The notes under the pieces: model-generated
Told to the model about the DNA's origin: nothing
Database searches by the model: none
What the model saw: the letters and a program-made list of their open reading frames with translations, nothing else
Shown here: positions 2,904 to 49,087 of the stretch, one piece after another
How positions within the stretch are numbered: position 1 is the first letter of the stretch
Layout: the number at the start of each line of letters is the position of its first letter
NCBI RefSeq assembly: GCF_036388435.1
Contig: NZ_DASVRV010000052.1
Location: 2,886-66,885, forward strand
Length of the DNA stretch: 64,000 nt
Source of the DNA: Sphingomonas sp.
GTDB taxonomy: Bacteria > Pseudomonadota > Alphaproteobacteria > Sphingomonadales > Sphingomonadaceae
Direction: 5' to 3'
Position numbers and translations under genes: made by a program

Positions 2904-3866
2904 CTATCCCCGCACCCGCGCGATCAGCCGCTCGACATGCGCGATCGGCGTGTGCTGGCCGATGCCATGGCCCAGATTGAATATATGGGGCCGCTCGGGA
3001 AAGGCCGCCAGCACGCGCGCGACCCCGCGGTCGAGCGCGTCGCCGCCGGTCAGCAGCACCAGCGGATCGAGATTGCCCTGCACCGGCATCCCCGTCGGCA
3101 GCACCGCGTCCGCCCAGACCGGATCGACCGTCTCGTCCAGCCCGATCGCGTCGGGCGCGACCCCCGCGGCATAAGCGGCCAGCTTGGCCCCCGCGCCTTT
3201 TGGAAAACCGATGATCGGCGCCTCCGGGCACCGCTCCCGCAGGCGGGCCACGATCCGGGCGTTGGGCTCGATCACCCAGCGGTCGAATTGTTCGGGCGAC
3301 AGCGATCCCGCCCAGCTGTCGAACAGCTGTACCGCTTCCACGCCAGCCTCGATCTGCCGCGCGAGATACTCGACCGTCAGCTCGACGATCGCGTCGATGA
3401 TCTCCCCGAATGCTTGCTCGTCGGCATAGGCGAAGGACCGCGTCTCGCCCTGATCCTTCGATCCCGACCCGTTCACCATGTACGTCGCCACGGTCCAGGG
3501 AGAGCCCGCAAAGCCCAGGAACGTCGTCTCGGGCGGCAGGGCCCCCGCGACCCGCGCCACGGTCGCATAGACCGGCTCCAGCCGCCCTGGTGCCCGCTCC
3601 AGCATTCCCAGCGCCGTGTCGACCAGCCGCGGCGTCAGACGTGGCCCCTCGCCCACCCCGAAGCTCAGATCCTGCCCCAATGCCCAGGGCACCATCAGGA
3701 TGTCGGAGAACAGGATCGCCCCGTCGAACCCGAACCGACGGATCGGCTGCAGCGTCACCTCCGCCGCCGCTTCGGGATCGGTGGCGAGCGCCAGGAAGCC
3801 GCCCTTCTCCGCCCTGAGCGCGCGATATTCGGGCAGGTAGCGCCCCGCCTGCCGCATCAGCCACAT
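2904..3866 (-). CDS. hemE: Uroporphyrinogen decarboxylase (5' end probably extends to about 3947, see findings)
   Basis: 320-aa ORF beginning MWLMRQAGRYLPEYR, with FSDILMVP and other HemE motifs. The in-frame upstream codons encode AKPLLGVLKGRRLDIPP, which looks like the conserved HemE N-terminus. Confidence 0.93.
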   Translation of the reverse strand: MWLMRQAGRYLPEYRALRAEKGGFLALATDPEAAAEVTLQPIRRFGFDGAILFSDILMVPWALGQDLSFGVGEGPRLTPRLVDTALGMLERAPGRLEPVYATVARVAGALPPETTFLGFAGSPWTVATYMVNGSGSKDQGETRSFAYADEQAFGEIIDAIVELTVEYLARQIEAGVEAVQLFDSWAGSLSPEQFDRWVIEPNARIVARLRERCPEAPIIGFPKGAGAKLAAYAAGVAPDAIGLDETVDPVWADAVLPTGMPVQGNLDPLVLLTGGDALDRGVARVLAAFPERPHIFNLGHGIGQHTPIAHVERLIARVRG

Positions 3867-4267: not shown

Positions 4268-5104
4268 GTGACGCGCCTCCATCTGCATCTCCTGTCGGAC
4301 TCGACCGGCGAAACGCTCGAGAACATCGCCAAGGCCGCGCTCGCCCAATATGACGCGGTCGACACCGTTCGGCATTTCTGGCCGATGGTCCGCACCGAGG
4401 CGCATCTGGAGCGCATCCTTCAGGAGATCGCGCAAAATCCCGGGCTCGTCATCTTCACCCTGGTCAACGCCGCGACCAGGCGGACGCTCGAACAGCGCTG
4501 CCGGACGCTGGGGCTTCCCGCGGTCGCTCCGCTCGATCCCGTCAACGACGCGTTGTCGGCGCTGCTCGGCCAGCAGGCCAAGGCACGGCCGGGTCGCCAG
4601 CACGTCCTCGACGCCGCCTATTTCGCGCGGGTGGACGCGATCCAGTTCACCATCGCGCATGACGACGGCATCGGCCAGGACGAATGGGAGGAAGCCGACA
4701 TCATGCTGGCCGGCGTCAGCCGCTCCTCCAAGACCCCGACCTCCATCTATCTCGCCAATCGCGGCTACAAGGTCGCCAACATCCCCGTGGTGGTCGAATC
4801 GCCCCCGCCCCGCGCCTTGTACGAACTCAAGCACCCGCTGATCGTCGGCCTCACCACCAGCGCCGACCGTCTGATCGCCATCCGCCGCAACCGTCTGTTG
4901 TCCCTGAACCAGGCGACCGAGACGAGCTATGTCGAGCAGGAGTCGGTATCCCGCGAGATCGCCTTTGCGCGGCGGATGTTCGCCGACAATGGCTGGCCGG
5001 TGATCGACGTCACCCGCCGCTCGATCGAGGAAACCGCGGCGGCCGTCATCGCCCTGCTGAACGATCGCGACGCGGGCGACGATCGCCGGGAAGGCCGCGC
5101 ATGA
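4268..5104 (+). CDS. Pyruvate,phosphate dikinase / PEP synthase regulatory protein family (DUF299 kinase/pyrophosphorylase)
   Basis: The homologous part starts at GTG 4268 (VTRLHLHLLSDSTGETLE...). It has the P-loop-like GVSRSSKTPTSIYLANRGYKVANIP. The upstream part of track ORF 4064..5104 overlaps the DnaA boxes and looks non-coding. Confidence 0.9.
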   Translation: MTRLHLHLLSDSTGETLENIAKAALAQYDAVDTVRHFWPMVRTEAHLERILQEIAQNPGLVIFTLVNAATRRTLEQRCRTLGLPAVAPLDPVNDALSALLGQQAKARPGRQHVLDAAYFARVDAIQFTIAHDDGIGQDEWEEADIMLAGVSRSSKTPTSIYLANRGYKVANIPVVVESPPPRALYELKHPLIVGLTTSADRLIAIRRNRLLSLNQATETSYVEQESVSREIAFARRMFADNGWPVIDVTRRSIEETAAAVIALLNDRDAGDDRREGRA

Positions 5105-5691
5105 CCCTGATCCTCGCCTCGGGCTCGGCCTCGCGCCGGGCGATGCTCGCCGCGGCCGGGGTGCCGTTCGAGGCGATGAGCCCGCAGGTGGACGAGGACG
5201 CCGCCAAGGCCGCGCTCGGCCGGGAGCGCCCCCGCGACCTGGCGGACGCGCTGGCGGAGCTCAAGGCGGTGAAGCTGTCGCTCCGCTGTCCCGACGCGCT
5301 GGTGCTGGGGTCGGATTCGCTGGTCGCGCTCGACGACGGCACGCTGCTCGACAAACCCGAAAGCCGCGAACAGGCGGCCGACCATCTCGCCCTCATGTCG
5401 GGGCGCGTCCACCGCCTCTGGAGCGCGGCGGTCGTGGCGGAGGGCGGTCGCCCCGTCTGGCGTCATGTCGAGGCGGCGACGATGCATGTCCGCCCGCTGT
5501 CCGACGGCTTCATCCGGCGTTATCTCGACGCGGAATGGCCGGCGATCGCGGGATGCGTCGGCTGCTACCGCGTGGAGGGACCGGGCGTGCAATTGTTCGA
5601 CCGCATCGAGGGATCGCATTTCACCGTGCTCGGCCTGCCGCTCCTGCCCGTGCTCGATTATCTGCGCACCCGGTCGGTCATGCCCCGGTGA
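5101..5691 (+). CDS. maf: Maf-like nucleoside triphosphate pyrophosphatase
   Basis: MTLILASGSASRRAMLAAAGVPFE... is a typical Maf N-terminus. The ATG overlaps the upstream stop (ATGA at 5101-5104). Confidence 0.9.
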   Translation: MTLILASGSASRRAMLAAAGVPFEAMSPQVDEDAAKAALGRERPRDLADALAELKAVKLSLRCPDALVLGSDSLVALDDGTLLDKPESREQAADHLALMSGRVHRLWSAAVVAEGGRPVWRHVEAATMHVRPLSDGFIRRYLDAEWPAIAGCVGCYRVEGPGVQLFDRIEGSHFTVLGLPLLPVLDYLRTRSVMPR

Positions 5692-5717
5692 CCGGCCGTT
5701 CCAGGCATGACCTTCCA

Positions 5718-6557
5718 GTGACCTTCCACGCATCCGGCCACGCATCCGGCCGTCCCTATGCCGAGGTGATCGGCGACCCGATCGCCCACTCCAAATCGCC
5801 GCTCATCCACGGCTTCTGGATAAATGCGCTCGGCCTCGACGCCGATTATCGCGCCACCCGCGTCGTGTCCGACGATCTTCCCGCCTACTTCGCGAGCCGC
5901 CGCGCCGATCCGCACTGGCGCGGCTGCAACGTCACCATTCCCCACAAGCTCGCCGCGCTCGACCATGTGGAGGACCGGGGCGACGTCCGCGCCACCATCG
6001 GCGCGATCAACCTGGCGATGCGCGCGCCGGACGGCGCGCTGATCGGCGCCAATACCGACGCCGGCGGTTTCTACGCGCCGATCGCCGGGTTCGACTTCGC
6101 CGACAGGCCGGCGGTGGTGATCGGGGCCGGCGGCGCCGCCCGCGCGGTGCTCTTCGCGTTGGCGAAGATGGAGGTCGGCCCGGTCACGATCCTCAACCGC
6201 AGTCCGCTCAAGGGGGCCGCGCTTTTGTCCGCCTTCAGGCTCAAGGGCCGCGCCCTGCCCCTATCCGCCCCTGTCCCGCCCGCCGCCCTGCTGGTCAATG
6301 CCAGCGCGCTCGGCATGGCCGGCCATCCCCCGCTCGATCTCGACCTGTCGACGCTGCCCGATGACGCGGTCGTCTATGATCTGGTCTACGCCCCGCTGGA
6401 GACCGATCTTCTGGCCCAGGCCAATGACCGCGGGCTGGAAACCGTCGACGGGCTCGAGATGCTCGTCGGCCAGGCCGCCCTCGCCTTCGAGTTGCTCTTC
6501 GGCATGGAGCCGCCGCGCGAGCGCGACGACGAACTGCGCGAGCTGCTGACGGCATGA
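5718..6557 (+). CDS. aroE: Shikimate dehydrogenase
   Basis: Motifs AHSKSPLIH, NVTIPHK, NTDAGG and GAGGAARA are present. The start is either GTG 5718 or GTG 5688, the latter overlapping the maf stop as GTGA. Confidence 0.9.
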   Translation: MTFHASGHASGRPYAEVIGDPIAHSKSPLIHGFWINALGLDADYRATRVVSDDLPAYFASRRADPHWRGCNVTIPHKLAALDHVEDRGDVRATIGAINLAMRAPDGALIGANTDAGGFYAPIAGFDFADRPAVVIGAGGAARAVLFALAKMEVGPVTILNRSPLKGAALLSAFRLKGRALPLSAPVPPAALLVNASALGMAGHPPLDLDLSTLPDDAVVYDLVYAPLETDLLAQANDRGLETVDGLEMLVGQAALAFELLFGMEPPRERDDELRELLTA

Positions 6558-7144
6558 TCACGGTCGGCCTCACCGGCTCGATCGGCATGGGCAAGTCGAC
6601 GGTCGCCGCGATGTTCGCCGACAAGGGCGTGCCCGTCTTCGACGCCGATGCCGCCGTCCACCGGCTCCAGGGCCCCGCCGGCCGCGTCGTCGCCGCGATC
6701 AAGGCCGCCTTTCCCTCGACCACCGGCCAGGCGGGCGTGAACCGCACCGCGTTGGCGGAGGCGGTGCTGGGTGACGACGCGGCGATGAAGCGGCTCGAAG
6801 CGATCGTCCATCCCGCCGTGGGCGAGGAACGCGCCGCCTTTCTCGCCGACCATCGGGGGGCGCCGATCGTCCTGTTCGATATCCCGCTGTTGTTCGAGAC
6901 GGGCGGCGAGGCGCGGGTCGACAAGGTCGTCGTCGTCTCCGCCGCGCCAGAAATCCAGCGCGCGCGCGTCCTCGCCCGACCCGGCATGACCCCGGCCAGG
7001 CTCGACGCCATCCTCGCCCGCCAGCTTCCCGACGCCGCCAAGCGCGCCCGCGCCGATTTCGTGATCGCGACGGACGTGCCGCCGGACGAGACCCGCGCCG
7101 CCGTCGCCCGCGTCGTCGCTTGCTTGCTGGCCGGCAAAGGCTGA
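6554..7144 (+). CDS. coaE: Dephospho-CoA kinase
   Basis: 196 aa with P-loop GLTGSIGMGKST. The start forms an ATGA overlap with the aroE stop. Confidence 0.93.
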   Translation: MITVGLTGSIGMGKSTVAAMFADKGVPVFDADAAVHRLQGPAGRVVAAIKAAFPSTTGQAGVNRTALAEAVLGDDAAMKRLEAIVHPAVGEERAAFLADHRGAPIVLFDIPLLFETGGEARVDKVVVVSAAPEIQRARVLARPGMTPARLDAILARQLPDAAKRARADFVIATDVPPDETRAAVARVVACLLAGKG

Positions 7145-17966: not shown

Positions 17967-19027
17967 GCGGCGGCGCTCCGAAAGCCGAAGCCCTCCGCCG
18001 CCAGCCCCGGCCCGAAGGCGAGCGCCAGCCCCTCGCGCACCGCCGGCCCGTCGAGCAGCCGGGCAAGCACGAACATGAGCGTCGCCGAAGACATGTTGCC
18101 GCAATCGGCGAGCACGCCGCGCGAAACGGCGAGCGCGTCGTCAGGCAGACGAAACGCGGTCTGCACCGCGTCCAGGATCGATCGCCCGCCGGCATGGACC
18201 GCCCAGCCATCGATGGATGCGGGCGGTCGTCCCCCCGTCGCGTCGCGCGCCAGATCGGGGTCGCCCAGTGCCTGGGCGATCCGCCCCGGTACCTCGCCGG
18301 ACAGGTGCATCGCGAAACCGTGATCGGTGATGTTCCAGCGGATCAACGCGTCCGAATCGGGCAAGGTCGTCGCGAAAGGCTGGTCGATCGCGAAGCCGCG
18401 CGGCTCGGCGGTCACCAGCGCCGCCGCGGCGCCGTCACCGAACTGAAGCATCGCGAGCAACGGTTCGAGCGCCTCGACCTCCTGCAGGTGAAGCGTCGAA
18501 AGCTCCACCGTCACGACGAGCACGCGCGCGGCCGGGTCGGAGCGGACGACGTGGCGCGCGCTGCGCAGCGCCGCGACCGCGGCGTAACAGCCCATGAAGC
18601 CGACGAGCAGGCGCTCGACCGAGGGCGCCAGTTCCAATCGTCGCGCAAGGATCTGGTCGATCCCCGGCGCGACGAAGCCGGTGCAGCTCGCCACCACGAG
18701 ATGGGTGATCCCCGCGAGCGACACCCGCTCGCCGAGCGCGGCGACCGCGCGCAATGCGAGGTCCGGCGCCGCCTCGGCATAGACCGCCATCCGCCGCGCG
18801 GTGCCCGGACGCTCGCCATGGTAGAAGCCGTCAGGGTCGACGGGCGACCCGCCCACCGACGTCTCGGGGAGCACCGACCAGCGGTGACGGATGCTCGCGC
18901 GGCCGGCCATGCGATCGAACAGCTTCCGCTCGCGCGGCGACACGCGCGTGCGCGCCCAGGCGATGAACGCGTCATGGATGTCATGGGCAGGCACGGCGGT
19001 GCCGACGGCGTTGATATGGGGCGTCAA
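17963..19027 (-). CDS. Type III polyketide synthase (chalcone/stilbene synthase superfamily)
   Basis: 354 aa. The Cys-His-Asn triad contexts are present: VVASCTGFVAPG, WAVHAGGRSILD and CGNMSSATLMFVL. Confidence 0.92.
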   Translation of the reverse strand: MTPHINAVGTAVPAHDIHDAFIAWARTRVSPRERKLFDRMAGRASIRHRWSVLPETSVGGSPVDPDGFYHGERPGTARRMAVYAEAAPDLALRAVAALGERVSLAGITHLVVASCTGFVAPGIDQILARRLELAPSVERLLVGFMGCYAAVAALRSARHVVRSDPAARVLVVTVELSTLHLQEVEALEPLLAMLQFGDGAAAALVTAEPRGFAIDQPFATTLPDSDALIRWNITDHGFAMHLSGEVPGRIAQALGDPDLARDATGGRPPASIDGWAVHAGGRSILDAVQTAFRLPDDALAVSRGVLADCGNMSSATLMFVLARLLDGPAVREGLALAFGPGLAAEGFGFRSAAA

Positions 19028-46498: not shown

Positions 46499-47581
46499 AT
46501 GCCCAGCCTTTTCGATCCGGTCCAGCTCGGCGCCGTTCATGCGCCCAACCGCATCCTCATGGCCCCGCTGACGCGCGGTCGCGCCACCAGGGAGGCGGTG
46601 CCGACGCCGATGATGGTCGATTATTACCGCCAGCGCGCAGGCGCGGGGCTGATCATCTCCGAAGCGACGGGCATCAGCCGCGAGGGGCTGGGCTGGCCCT
46701 ATGCGCCCGGGCTGTGGACCGACGCACAGGCGGAGGGCTGGCGGCCCGTCACCGACGCCGTCCATGCGGCGGGCGGGCGCATCGTCGCGCAGCTCTGGCA
46801 TATGGGTCGCCAGGTCCATTCCAGCGTGATCGGCGGGCAGCCGGTGTCGTCCTCCGCGACCGCGACGGACGGCATGGCGCACACCTATGAGGGCAAGCAG
46901 CCCTTCGAGGTCGCGCGGCCGCTGGCGCTGGACGAGATGCCGCGGCTGCTCGACGATTACGCGCTGGCGACGCGCAACGCGCTGGCGGCGGGGTTCGACG
47001 GGGTGCAGATCCACGCCGCGAACGGCTATCTGATCGACCAGTTCCTGCGCGACGGCGCCAACCACCGCACCGACGCCTATGGCGGCGCCCCCGAGAACCG
47101 CATCCGCCTGCTGCGCGAGGTGACGGAGCGCGTCGCGTCGATCGCGGGGGCGGACCGGACGGCGGTCCGGCTATCCCCCAACGGCGACAGCCAGGGCGTC
47201 GACGACAGCGATCCGCCGGCGGTGTTCATCCCCGCCGTGCGCGCGCTGGGCGAGATCGGCATCGCGTTCCTGGAGCTGCGCGAGCCGGGCCCCGAGGGCA
47301 GTTTCGGCAGCACCGACGTGCCGCGCCTGTCGCCGCTGATCCGCGAGGCGTTCACGGGCCCGCTGGTGCTCAATTCCGATTACGGCGCGGCGAGCGCGCA
47401 GGCGGCGCTCGATAGCGGGGTGGCCGACGCGATCGCGTTCGGGCGTCCCTACATCGCCAACCCCGACCTGGTCGACCGCTTCCGCGCGGGCGCCCCGATC
47501 GCCCCGGACGACATGAAGACCTGGTACAGCCAGGGGCCGGAGGGGTATGTGGACTATCCGGCGCTGGCGCAGGCGGCGTAG
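46499..47581 (+). CDS. Old Yellow Enzyme family alkene reductase (N-ethylmaleimide reductase-like)
   Basis: It starts MPSLFDPVQLGAVHAPNRILMAPLTR. HAANGYLIDQFL and the FGRPYIANPDL motifs are present. Confidence 0.9.
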   Translation: MPSLFDPVQLGAVHAPNRILMAPLTRGRATREAVPTPMMVDYYRQRAGAGLIISEATGISREGLGWPYAPGLWTDAQAEGWRPVTDAVHAAGGRIVAQLWHMGRQVHSSVIGGQPVSSSATATDGMAHTYEGKQPFEVARPLALDEMPRLLDDYALATRNALAAGFDGVQIHAANGYLIDQFLRDGANHRTDAYGGAPENRIRLLREVTERVASIAGADRTAVRLSPNGDSQGVDDSDPPAVFIPAVRALGEIGIAFLELREPGPEGSFGSTDVPRLSPLIREAFTGPLVLNSDYGAASAQAALDSGVADAIAFGRPYIANPDLVDRFRAGAPIAPDDMKTWYSQGPEGYVDYPALAQAA

Positions 47582-47603
47582 CGGCCGGTTCGCCGGGATG
47601 GAG

Positions 47604-47634
47604 CGCCCGGGCGGGCCTATGTCCGGCCCGGGCG
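47604..47634 (+). terminator. GC-rich hairpin downstream of the alkene reductase gene
   Basis: cgcccgggc ... gcccgggcg gives 9-bp complementary arms 23 nt after the stop. There is no clear U-tract. Confidence 0.35.
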
Positions 47635-47718
47635 AGCCTGTGGCACGGGTGCCTGCCTTTGGTGGGTAGGCGACGCCGCGCATTTGGCGCACATTCGTCT
47701 GACGCAGTCCTCCTGATC

Positions 47719-47744
47719 GTGTCACAACCGTTCGGTTGTGACAC
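47719..47744. repeat. Perfect 26-bp palindrome GTGTCACAACCG-TT-CGGTTGTGACAC (copy 1)
   Basis: Read directly from the sequence. The arms are 12 bp with a 2-nt spacer. It lies 30 nt beyond the stop of the orphan lipoprotein gene. Confidence 0.9.
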
Positions 47745-47773
47745 CGGCCCGTCACGCGTTCTTTCAGCGAGCA

Positions 47774-48493
47774 TCAGATGATGTAGGTAAAGCGATGCCC
47801 TATGACGCTCCATCCATCTGCATCCCGGCGAAGCGCATAAAGGTGGCCCGCAGTTGCCGACGAACGAGAAACGAAGGCCCAGCCTTGATATATAGTCGGA
47901 CGTGAGAGACGGGCTCCACAATCTGATTTCAGTGCAATATCCGGCAAATCGCCTCCAGTCAGAAATACGGCACGGCGCTTGCGCGGCGCAGCCATCGCTG
48001 CATCAGCGTAGGCTTCTGCAACTGTCAGTTCGACAGATGATGGAAGCGTCACGTTGCCTTCATCCACGGACCCCCATGATCCACGCTGATCGGCGATGAT
48101 CCACTCGCGGACGTCGGCAGCGGTGGGCCGATTCTTGCCCTCTTGACGTAGTTCGTCGACGGCAGCCTTCCGGAGGCTTGCATCAACGTTGCCCTCATCA
48201 AGCGCCGGGTTAAGGCAACCAAGTTCGCCTTTGGGATCTAGGAAGCGGTGGAGCGCTCCGACAACGGCAACTTCTTCGCGAGCGTTTGTGCTTGGAATGC
48301 GGCCCGTGCCGGGCAAGAAAATGACGCTGCCTTTACTTCCTGCGCGCACGGGCGGGGAGTAGATCGCGGTTCCCGCAGATGACGTTGCGCCGCCACCGCC
48401 CGATTGAGTAGCGCACGCCCCCAGAGCTAGTGACCCGATCACAGTCGATGCGAAGTACCGAGCAGCCCAAGCGACCATGTATCCTGTTAACAC
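47774..48493 (-). CDS. Hypothetical lipoprotein, no recognisable family (orphan)
   Basis: 239-aa ORF, and the only long ORF in this visibly lower-GC stretch. The signal peptide has lipobox SLALGAC. The start is GTG 48493 or ATG 48478, the latter preceded by AGGA. No motif was recognised. Confidence 0.55.
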   Translation of the reverse strand: MLTGYMVAWAARYFASTVIGSLALGACATQSGGGGATSSAGTAIYSPPVRAGSKGSVIFLPGTGRIPSTNAREEVAVVGALHRFLDPKGELGCLNPALDEGNVDASLRKAAVDELRQEGKNRPTAADVREWIIADQRGSWGSVDEGNVTLPSSVELTVAEAYADAAMAAPRKRRAVFLTGGDLPDIALKSDCGARLSRPTIYQGWAFVSRSSATAGHLYALRRDADGWSVIGHRFTYII

Positions 48494-48514
48494 CCGACTT
48501 TAATTTAGGCCAGA

Positions 48515-48540
48515 GTGTCACAACCGGTCGGTTCTGACGC
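48515..48540. repeat. Second copy of the 26-bp palindrome, GTGTCACAACCG-GT-CGGTTCTGACGC (10/12 arm pairs)
   Basis: Read directly from the sequence, in the same orientation as copy 1. It lies 22 nt upstream of the GTG start of the orphan lipoprotein gene. Confidence 0.85.
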
Positions 48541-48673
48541 GGCGAGCCGATCCATGCTTTTCCGAGCACCCGAGGGTGTCAAAAACCCCGGTCGGAATGG
48601 CGGGTTTCGAGCGGTGCCCGATCGAGCGGGAGCGTCCAGCAGGTCAGGGAGATCACTCGCGCGCGGTTTCGCG

Positions 48674-49087
48674 TCAACCGAAGCGTTCCCGGAGTGCCAG
48701 CATCGCGAGCGCCGCCTGGGCCGCGCCGCCGCCCTTGTCGCCTTCGGTGGGGCGGGCGCGGGCCAGGGCCTGGGCTTCGTTCTCGACCGTCAGGATGCCG
48801 TTGCCGATGGCGAGGCCGTCCATGGTCAGGGCCATGATCCCGCGCGCGGACTCGCCCGCGACGATCTCGAAATGATAGGTCTCGCCGCGGATGACGACGC
48901 CGAGCGCGACGAAGGCGTCGTACCGTTCGGCGGCGAGGGCGATGACGCCGGGGACTTCGAGCGCGCCGGGCACCGTCACCGTCTCATGCTCATGCCCCGC
49001 CGCTTCGATCGCCGCGCGGGCGCCGTGGAGGAGCAGGTCGTTGAGGTGGTCGTAGAAGCGCGCCTCGACGATCAGGATGGTGGCCAT
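48674..49087 (-). CDS. ribH: 6,7-dimethyl-8-ribityllumazine synthase
   Basis: 137 aa with [20 protein letters not shown]..., VPGALEVP and [12 protein letters not shown], as expected for RibH. Confidence 0.93.

Follow-up and report, generated by a model that had tools for sequence, protein, structure and literature searches.

A 64,000-nucleotide stretch of the Sphingomonas sp. contig NZ_DASVRV010000052.1 (hereafter the window) carries, between the gene of an Old Yellow Enzyme-type alkene reductase and ribH, a single lipoprotein gene that is embedded in DNA of low guanine-plus-cytosine (GC) content and flanked by two copies of a 26-bp palindrome, which raises the question of where this block came from and what the palindromes at its ends do. 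An initial annotation had offered two answers, a horizontally acquired cassette delimited or mobilised by hairpins of the IS200/IS605 type, or an orphan gene controlled by a dimeric regulator that binds the palindromes. Taking the composition of the locus together with its counterparts in relatives and with the occurrence of the palindrome in other genomes, we consider the ~0.96 kb from 47719 to 48676 to be probably an acquired module without a recombinase gene, whose boundaries would be sites of a small serine recombinase supplied in trans.

The compositional difference, previously judged by eye, holds when computed: in 300-nt windows the GC content is 0.57-0.63 between positions 47700 and 48600 as compared to 0.70-0.74 on either side, and it amounts to ~0.59 over the whole of 47719-48676. 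At third codon positions (GC3) the value is 0.553 for the lipoprotein gene (234 aa) and 0.92, 0.91, 0.95 and 0.89 for the reductase gene, ribH, ribBA and the EamA gene, respectively. We regard the block as almost certainly foreign DNA.

Both palindromes lie where the initial annotation had placed them. The downstream copy (47719-47744, minus strand, 29 nt past the stop codon of the lipoprotein gene) is a perfect 12-2-12 palindrome, GTGTCACAACCGTTCGGTTGTGACAC, which reads GTGTCACAACCG-TT-CGGTTGTGACAC on the plus strand and has the centre AA in module orientation; it matches the consensus of the site family described below and would form the downstream boundary of the module as a lone crossover-type site, termed site I. 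The upstream copy (48515-48540, minus strand), GTGTCACAACCGGTCGGTTCTGACGC, is the site I of what we take to be an orphan res-like site. It reads GTGTCACAACCG-GT-CGGTTCTGACGC on the plus strand, has the centre AC in module orientation, and matches the family consensus perfectly in its cargo-proximal arm and with two mismatches in its distal arm; its distance from the gene, earlier given as 22 nt, which applies to a GTG start, is 36 nt from the likelier ATG start. These two are the only 26-mer matches in the window at up to three mismatches, where shuffled sequences lead one to expect 0, and they are still the only two at up to six mismatches over 22 specified positions (0.1 expected). A weaker third relative had been noticed near 48575; it is the half-site GTGTCAAAAACC at 48576, the sole further one with at most two mismatches between 47000 and 49200, and it belongs to the second site of the res-like arrangement.

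A scan of one genome per species returned at least 119 stretches with such sites, nearly all of them in Sphingomonadaceae and with few copies per genome. The family consensus is GTGTCA-N-AACCG-NN-CGGTTGTGACAC, with 12-bp arms that are conserved across genera and a central dinucleotide that is free: among the matches listed (~140 site instances) the centre is AA in 55, AC in 50, GA in 18 and AG in 12. Conserved arms around a variable 2-bp centre are the signature of a site bound by a dimeric protein with a 2-bp core, and not that of a repetitive extragenic palindromic (REP) element or a terminator. The arrangement of two inverted ~12-bp half-sites around a 2-bp centre is also the crossover layout of serine recombinases. 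As far as its distribution goes, the palindrome is a generic, family-wide site without a special tie to the lipoprotein gene, an outcome that the initial annotation had considered, though it is not an abundant REP.

When all open reading frames (ORFs) within 1.5 kb of the sites were clustered, the top cluster, present at 17 of the 119 loci among the matches listed, turned out to encode a resolvase/invertase with a PF00239 Resolvase domain and a C-terminal helix-turn-helix, whose best solved relatives are the Gin invertase (E=3e-38), the gamma-delta and Tn3 resolvases (~1e-23) and Sin (6e-11). In the PLSDB plasmid collection, the conserved module that accompanies AC-centred sites (see below) adjoins genes annotated 'recombinase family protein', and its small serine recombinase is common on plasmids of Sphingomonadaceae and Paracoccus. 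The palindromes are, very probably, serine-recombinase sites. The earlier suggestion of a dimeric operator thus retains its dyad for the binding of a dimer, but the binder is most likely the recombinase, with flanking homologies that break at the site centres. Recombinase genes of subtype B (Gin-like) and of a subtype-A-like kind end 4-150 nt before an AA-type site (L105, 5887-6762; L027, 5006-5702; L021, 2939-3525; the L numbers denote loci in the comparison), so that several subtypes cluster around the sites; in subtype A the res is at the 5' end of the gene, and in subtypes B and C it is the 3' end that adjoins a site or res.

The AC-centred sites carry, on one side and always the outer one, a conserved module of ~135 nt. 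A half-site like CGGTTNTGACAC stands at -47 from site I in 37 of 41 AC-type sites, and where a second half of this site II can be recognised, it is found at -60, another 13 bp outward, with the orientation unchanged. The resulting layout is that of a res of 86 bp, with a site I of 26 bp, a spacer of 35 bp and a head-to-tail site II of 25 bp. In the window, where all these features are on the minus strand, the spacer occupies 48541-48575 and holds the conserved GGAAAAGCGTGG motif (in the alignment of the 41 AC-type sites, the family motif is ...GGAAAAGC(A/G)TGG...); the accessory site II, CATTCCGACCGGGGTTTTTGACAC in module orientation, is assigned to 48576-48600 by the half-site geometry of the AC-type family; and the distal part of the conserved module, ~75 nt long and here called M-left, extends over 48601-48676 up to the ribH stop codon, in the place that the recombinase gene holds on plasmids. 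An nhmmer profile of the ~135-nt module matches the window at 48676-48545 with E=6.7e-13, and no known RNA families were found at the modules in Rfam. On the S. melonis TY plasmid (L141; NZ_CP017579), which encodes a recombinase of subtype A (WP_062126974.1), the recombinase ATG is followed outward by 6 nt, ATTCTGACAC GGG GTTCTGACAC, 35 nt and the site GTGTCACAACCG-GA-CGGTTGTGACAC, and the site II of this plasmid is a perfect head-to-tail repeat. Judged by this geometry, the upstream end of the block is a putative orphan res-like site with the layout of Sin res. On the Paracoccus marcusii plasmid pMOS6 (L142, 3660-3925), an AC-type res lies beside a recombinase gene that is truncated by an IS5-family transposase gene and of which only the 5' part is present; no resolvase is mentioned in the published description of pMOS6.

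Direct traces of exchange are found at loci that share only one flank. L021 and L055, from different species, agree at 300 of 300 positions up to and through the left arm, and beginning with the centre their identity is 24%; for L055 and L061 it is the right sides that agree at 300 of 300 positions, and the left sides are unrelated. L021 and L061 belong to one genome, that of S. guangdongensis (sites at 3500 and 2524, respectively), and L055 to Sphingomonas sp. EC-HK361 (site at 581). Because of these one-sided identities, L055 can be described as the left of L021 joined to the right of L061 at the site centre, a joint that indicates what would be a very recent transfer accompanied by site-specific exchange. 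L096 and L143 likewise have 91-96% identity on one side only, with the switch at the centre. Since flanking homologies break exactly at the site centres, the sites are real crossover points.

The sites moreover recur in pairs of fixed polarity. At least 19 pairs, including those of the window and of L009 (the locus of a close homolog of the cargo, see below), consist, on one strand, of a res with the centre AC, a cargo of 0.5-2.7 kb and a site I with the centre AA, and among the matches listed each of the other three possible AC/AA arrangements is represented by at most one pair; adjacent 8-kb blocks of the same contigs hold at least four further pairs of the same polarity. The cargo is varied (LysR and AraC regulators, transporters, an acetyltransferase, peptidase-like and exported proteins), stands in either orientation with respect to the sites and often has a GC content below that of the flanks. 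About half of the AA sites among the matches listed are then followed by a conserved element of ~75 nt, here called E, a relative of the module's distal part. M-left and E are alike at the family level only; a profile search finds no E in the window or in L009, and in the window the downstream site has neither an accessory site nor an E element beside it. At L074 (3955-4280), a post-AA element of ~60-75 nt is present in about four tandem copies beside a TC-centred site and behaves as a small repeat unit of its own. A target-site or att-like duplication of the outer flanks was considered and rejected, the same-locus score being 17.6 as compared to 14.7 across loci and 15.0 in the reverse-complement control.

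One complete metagenome-assembled genome (MAG), of Novosphingopyxis, shows where a recombinase could come from. Its plasmid 3 (28 kb; NZ_OZ244710.1, L053) carries the recombinase gene with an AC-type res, and its chromosome NZ_OZ244708.1 (L017, L068, L109) carries two AC...AA modules without a recombinase, at 3,026,736-3,029,335 and 879,896-882,155. The presence of both in one genome makes a supply in trans plausible.

The interval between the reductase gene and ribH was compared across relatives, as already proposed in the initial annotation. Two loci with a 98% identical reductase (L136, L137) have the same cassette. In L138 (reductase 90% identical) the interval between the reductase gene and ribH measures 143 bp (4587-4729) and contains REP-like CCCTCTCCCGCGAAAGCGGGAGAGGG hairpins, with no site and no module; in L139 and L140 (88% identical) it extends from 4587 to 6130 and holds a gene for a GldB_lipo-like protein of 297 aa and a gene for a protein of 158 aa, both of native GC content. 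These intervals are orthologous to 47582-48673 of the window. L139 has a diverged palindrome at 4639, after the stop codon of the reductase gene, with the sequence GGGTCGCAACCA-CT-CGGTTGCGACCC. As the interval is variable among relatives, the block is an insertion or replacement in a hotspot.

The same cargo occurs once more in a different setting. At L009 the gene of an 80% identical protein (P0002) has a short-chain dehydrogenase gene on one side and the 3' end of a regulator gene on the other, and it again stands in a block of low GC content (GC3 0.56) with the same palindromes at both ends. From the downstream end of the module to the upstream one, identity to the window is 26/26 in the AA site, 69% between it and the stop codon, 84% in the coding region, 78% in the 5' leader and 14/14 in the centre and cargo-proximal arm of the AC site; it is 9/12 in the distal arm of that site, 46% in the spacer, 68% in site II (the shared motif only), 35% in M-left and 34-46% beyond the AA site. 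Since the identity is confined to the DNA between the sites, the cargo has become attached, at the sites, to a different res module and to different outer DNA in each of the two lineages. On this alignment, the unit of inheritance at the locus is apparently the DNA between the two sites. Of the two original readings, the horizontally acquired single-gene cassette delimited by palindromes is hence the one that has stood, borne out by the GC3, the empty interval of L138 and the same cassette in L009.

We consider it likely that the block moved by recombination at its sites. A recombinase from elsewhere, for example from a plasmid, would bring in or swap the cargo in two site-specific events, one between AC sites and the other between AA sites, with a cointegrate formed at one end and resolved at the other, as has been proposed for Xer-dependent dif modules; having unlike centres, the two ends would be unable to delete or invert the cargo between them. 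A further probable effect of recombinase occupying the upstream site, 36 nt away from the start codon, would be repression of the cargo gene, by analogy with resolvases and their own res. This specific two-step exchange between heterospecific sites is tentative, and we think it somewhat doubtful.

Several points weigh against movement by recombination at the sites. By the standard rule the two ends, with their differing central dinucleotides, cannot recombine with each other, and the joint of L021 and L061 itself pairs an AA with a GA centre, a mismatch that the same rule disfavours. Wild-type resolvases normally need a full res on both partners, and a lone site I is all that the downstream end has. 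There is no recombinase gene within the 64-kb window, a tblastn search for a remnant beside the res gave chance-level matches, and three recombinase subtypes occur near the sites, any one of which is a candidate cognate. A first arrival in a site-less interval such as that of L138 would have no explanation in the model, and with a reductase identity of only 90%, this nearest relative with an empty site is too diverged to show exact insertion junctions.

Some of these points would sit equally well with a passive scar, the alternative that survives best although we regard it as unlikely: the block would be the leftover of an integrated plasmid or island that had a res and a second site, the sites would be inactive, and arrival would be due to homologous or illegitimate recombination. 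Such a remnant would be expected to lack a recombinase nearby, and it would accommodate the degenerate distal arm and M-left of the window, the absence here of the element E that follows other AA sites, and the occurrence elsewhere, for instance on an S. aliaeris plasmid, of orphan res modules that have no AA site close by. It is harder to reconcile with the same polarity and short cargo at 19 or more loci across genera, with a homology to L009 that stops precisely at both sites, with a downstream 26-mer that is perfect and identical in two copies whose coding regions diverge by 16%, and with recent crossovers at such sites elsewhere.

Rather more improbable is a mainly regulatory role, in which the dyads would be operators, a dimeric helix-turn-helix protein (the recombinase acting as a repressor or an inactive relative of it) would repress the cargo, and the downstream copy would serve as a second operator or roadblock. 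Tn3 and gamma-delta resolvases repress transcription through binding to res, both arms of the sites are conserved in sequence, and the upstream site is so close to the start codon that a promoter must overlap it. A consensus scan of the region upstream of the cargo found no sigma-70-like promoter, and any promoter of the cargo would have to overlap site I or sit in the res-like region. The cargo, however, stands in either orientation to the AC and AA sites, which leaves the sites no fixed position with respect to promoters, and the accessory site, the adjacency of recombinase genes and the breaks of homology at the centres all point to recombination; repression fits best as a secondary role within a recombination system, and not as the sole one. 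A promoter for an ECF41 sigma factor (-35 TGTCACA) was also considered and rejected as a coincidental likeness: the CGTC of a -10 element is missing at 16 nt, and the dyad symmetry would not be accounted for by a sigma factor.

The mechanism named in the initial annotation, in which the palindromes would be subterminal hairpins of an IS200/IS605-type palindrome-associated transposable element (PATE) or of a REP doublet and a Y1 transposase would move the block in single-stranded form, has very little probability left. It would account for perfect palindromes at both ends without classical terminal inverted repeats or target duplication, but no cluster of Y1 transposases (TnpA or the REP-associated RAYT) is found among the recurrent neighbours of the at least 119 sites, where the serine recombinase recurs instead; the copy number is low, the arms are kept as sequence across genera without compensatory changes around a variable 2-nt centre, the accessory head-to-tail site is a res architecture, and the crossovers map to the centre of the dyad. 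Transcription terminators, or generic structural hairpins flanking the gene by chance, are just as improbable: the downstream copy does follow the stop codon by 29 nt, and a terminator scan finds one terminator-like stem that partly overlaps it, but on the plus strand, whereas, as had been noted initially, neither palindrome is followed by a T-run and there is none on the strand of the gene, the same 26-mer also stands upstream of the gene, and its exact sequence is kept across genera and contexts.

Among known systems, the res of Sin comes closest in layout. It measures 86 bp and has an inverted-repeat site I that is cut to a 2-nt overhang, a head-to-tail site II and a spacer of ~35 bp bound by HU or IHF (PMC2428073). 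The sites described here share with this res of Staphylococcus plasmids the length, the inverted site I, the spacer, the head-to-tail site II and the position directly upstream of a plasmid recombinase gene. Unlike Sin, their recombinases are nearer to Gin (3e-38) than to Sin (6e-11) and do not belong to the Sin/beta subgroup, and the sites are therefore not filed as a Sin system despite the layout; the res of the window, in addition, is chromosomal, orphan and part of a pair whose other member, across the cargo gene, is a lone site I. The hix sites of the Hin invertase are 26 bp long and cut at the central core base pairs, where a core mismatch blocks ligation (PMC4513852). The palindrome resembles hix, and gix of Gin, in its length and in being a dyad with a central core. 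It differs from them in that no enhancer or Fis system was identified, that one of the two window sites has a res-type accessory site, and that the two have unlike centres, so that inversion or deletion between them is unexpected. A further likeness would be that of the half-site TTATCAAAAACC to GTGTCAAAACCG.

Considered as a mobile unit, the block is arguably most like the Xer-dependent dif module. In Acinetobacter, dif modules are bounded by 28-bp sites with XerC and XerD arms around a 6-bp spacer, and the exchange of a single module has been proposed to proceed through a cointegrate formed at one pair of sites with matching spacers and its resolution at the other (PMC13141974). Like the modules considered here, they comprise one to few genes between short bounding sites, have no recombinase of their own and are found as the same module in different contexts (PMC13141974, PMC6449649). 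The differences are that the dif system works with the tyrosine recombinases XerC/XerD on 11-6-11 sites and ours would work with a serine recombinase on 12-2-12 sites, and that dif modules alternate in site orientation and occur mainly on Rep_3 plasmids, whereas the present ones have a full res at one end and a lone site at the other, keep an AC/AA polarity and are in many copies chromosomal. Integron cassettes are similar in their single promoter-poor gene, imperfect palindromic recombination site, diverse cargo and recombinase acting in trans on cassettes, but integrons have an IntI tyrosine integrase, attC sites with R'/R'' cores, arrays and an attI platform in place of 26-bp double-stranded dyads; the 26-mer contains no GTTRRRY or RYYYAAC core, and neither arrays nor a tyrosine integrase were found among the recurrent neighbours of the sites. 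Membership in the IS200/IS605, REP, integron and Xer groups was thus rejected, a defining feature being absent in each case.

Small serine recombinases are seen mainly as resolvases of plasmids and transposons or as invertases. The pairs of sites around many different genes across Sphingomonadaceae suggest a shuffling of small modules that would be undescribed, and the finding would then reach beyond one odd cassette to a family-wide system of sites. It is quite possible, if short of probable, that Sphingomonadaceae and some neighbouring Alphaproteobacteria harbour an undescribed class of modules, made up of an orphan Sin-like res (AC) and a lone site (AA), which are shuffled between plasmids and chromosomes by a plasmid-borne serine recombinase in a natural form of recombinase-mediated cassette exchange. 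In the literature searched, neither these sites nor sphingomonad modules bounded by serine-recombinase sites were found to be described. If true, this would be a third site-specific route for the exchange of gene modules, beside integrons and Xer dif modules, and the serine-recombinase counterpart of both; the unlike centres would play in nature the part that heterospecific sites have in engineered cassette exchange. It would also explain some of the low-GC single-gene islands of sphingomonads near which neither a transposase nor an integrase is encoded, and the 26-mer together with the 86-bp res would give annotators a simple signature to search for.

The cargo of the window is a single gene on the minus strand (47774-48478) for a predicted lipoprotein of 234 aa with the lipobox LALGAC, which had been recognised from the start. 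The ORF extends over 47774-48493 if a GTG start is used, and only then does the earlier length of 239 aa apply; the ATG at 48478 is the likelier start, because an AGGA motif lies 5-8 nt upstream of it, the resulting length agrees with cluster P0001 and the 80% identical relative P0002 starts there. The 5' leader between the start codon and site I (48479-48514, 36 nt) contains this AGGA ribosome-binding site. Between the window copy and L009 the ratio of nonsynonymous to synonymous substitution rates is 0.32, from which the lipoprotein is under purifying selection.

That the protein has no recognisable motif was confirmed: it has no match in Pfam, NCBIfam, PADLOC or PHROGs, and a sequence profile search of the PDB returned nothing. 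A structural comparison gave no better result, the AlphaFold2 model (predicted local distance difference test score, pLDDT, 79) having no Foldseek match in the PDB with E<0.1; weak NTF2-like hints at E ~0.1-0.3 are not significant. The lipoprotein is accordingly an orphan, and by prediction it is exported. Only 10 related clusters were found among 5.8 billion proteins. Homologs of 47-58% identity in three Sphingomonas genomes lie directly downstream of rplJ-rplL, have a GC3 of 0.81-0.88 and are without palindromes, and the gene of the window is, by this comparison, apparently a foreign copy of a rare Sphingomonas protein. The homologs of native GC content after rplJ-rplL (L007, L008 and L010, at ~6001-6670) stand behind a terminator-like hairpin, and in a lineage of lower GC content (L011-L016) the homolog is found among OmpA-family and small hypothetical genes.

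The genes on either side of the block are native flanks outside the module. The alkene reductase gene occupies 46499-47581 on the plus strand (PF00724, E=1e-69) and ribH, encoding lumazine synthase, 48674-49087 on the minus strand (PF00885, E=1e-40). Between the reductase stop codon and the downstream site, and likewise outside the module, there is a GC-rich adjacent short direct repeat, GCCCGGGCGGGCCTATG / GCCCGGGCGAGCCTGTG, at 47605-47642. On the scale of the whole window, the cumulative GC skew falls from position 1 to ~18-19 kb and then rises; the turn at ~18000-19000 could be a switch in strand bias or merely a change in gene orientation.

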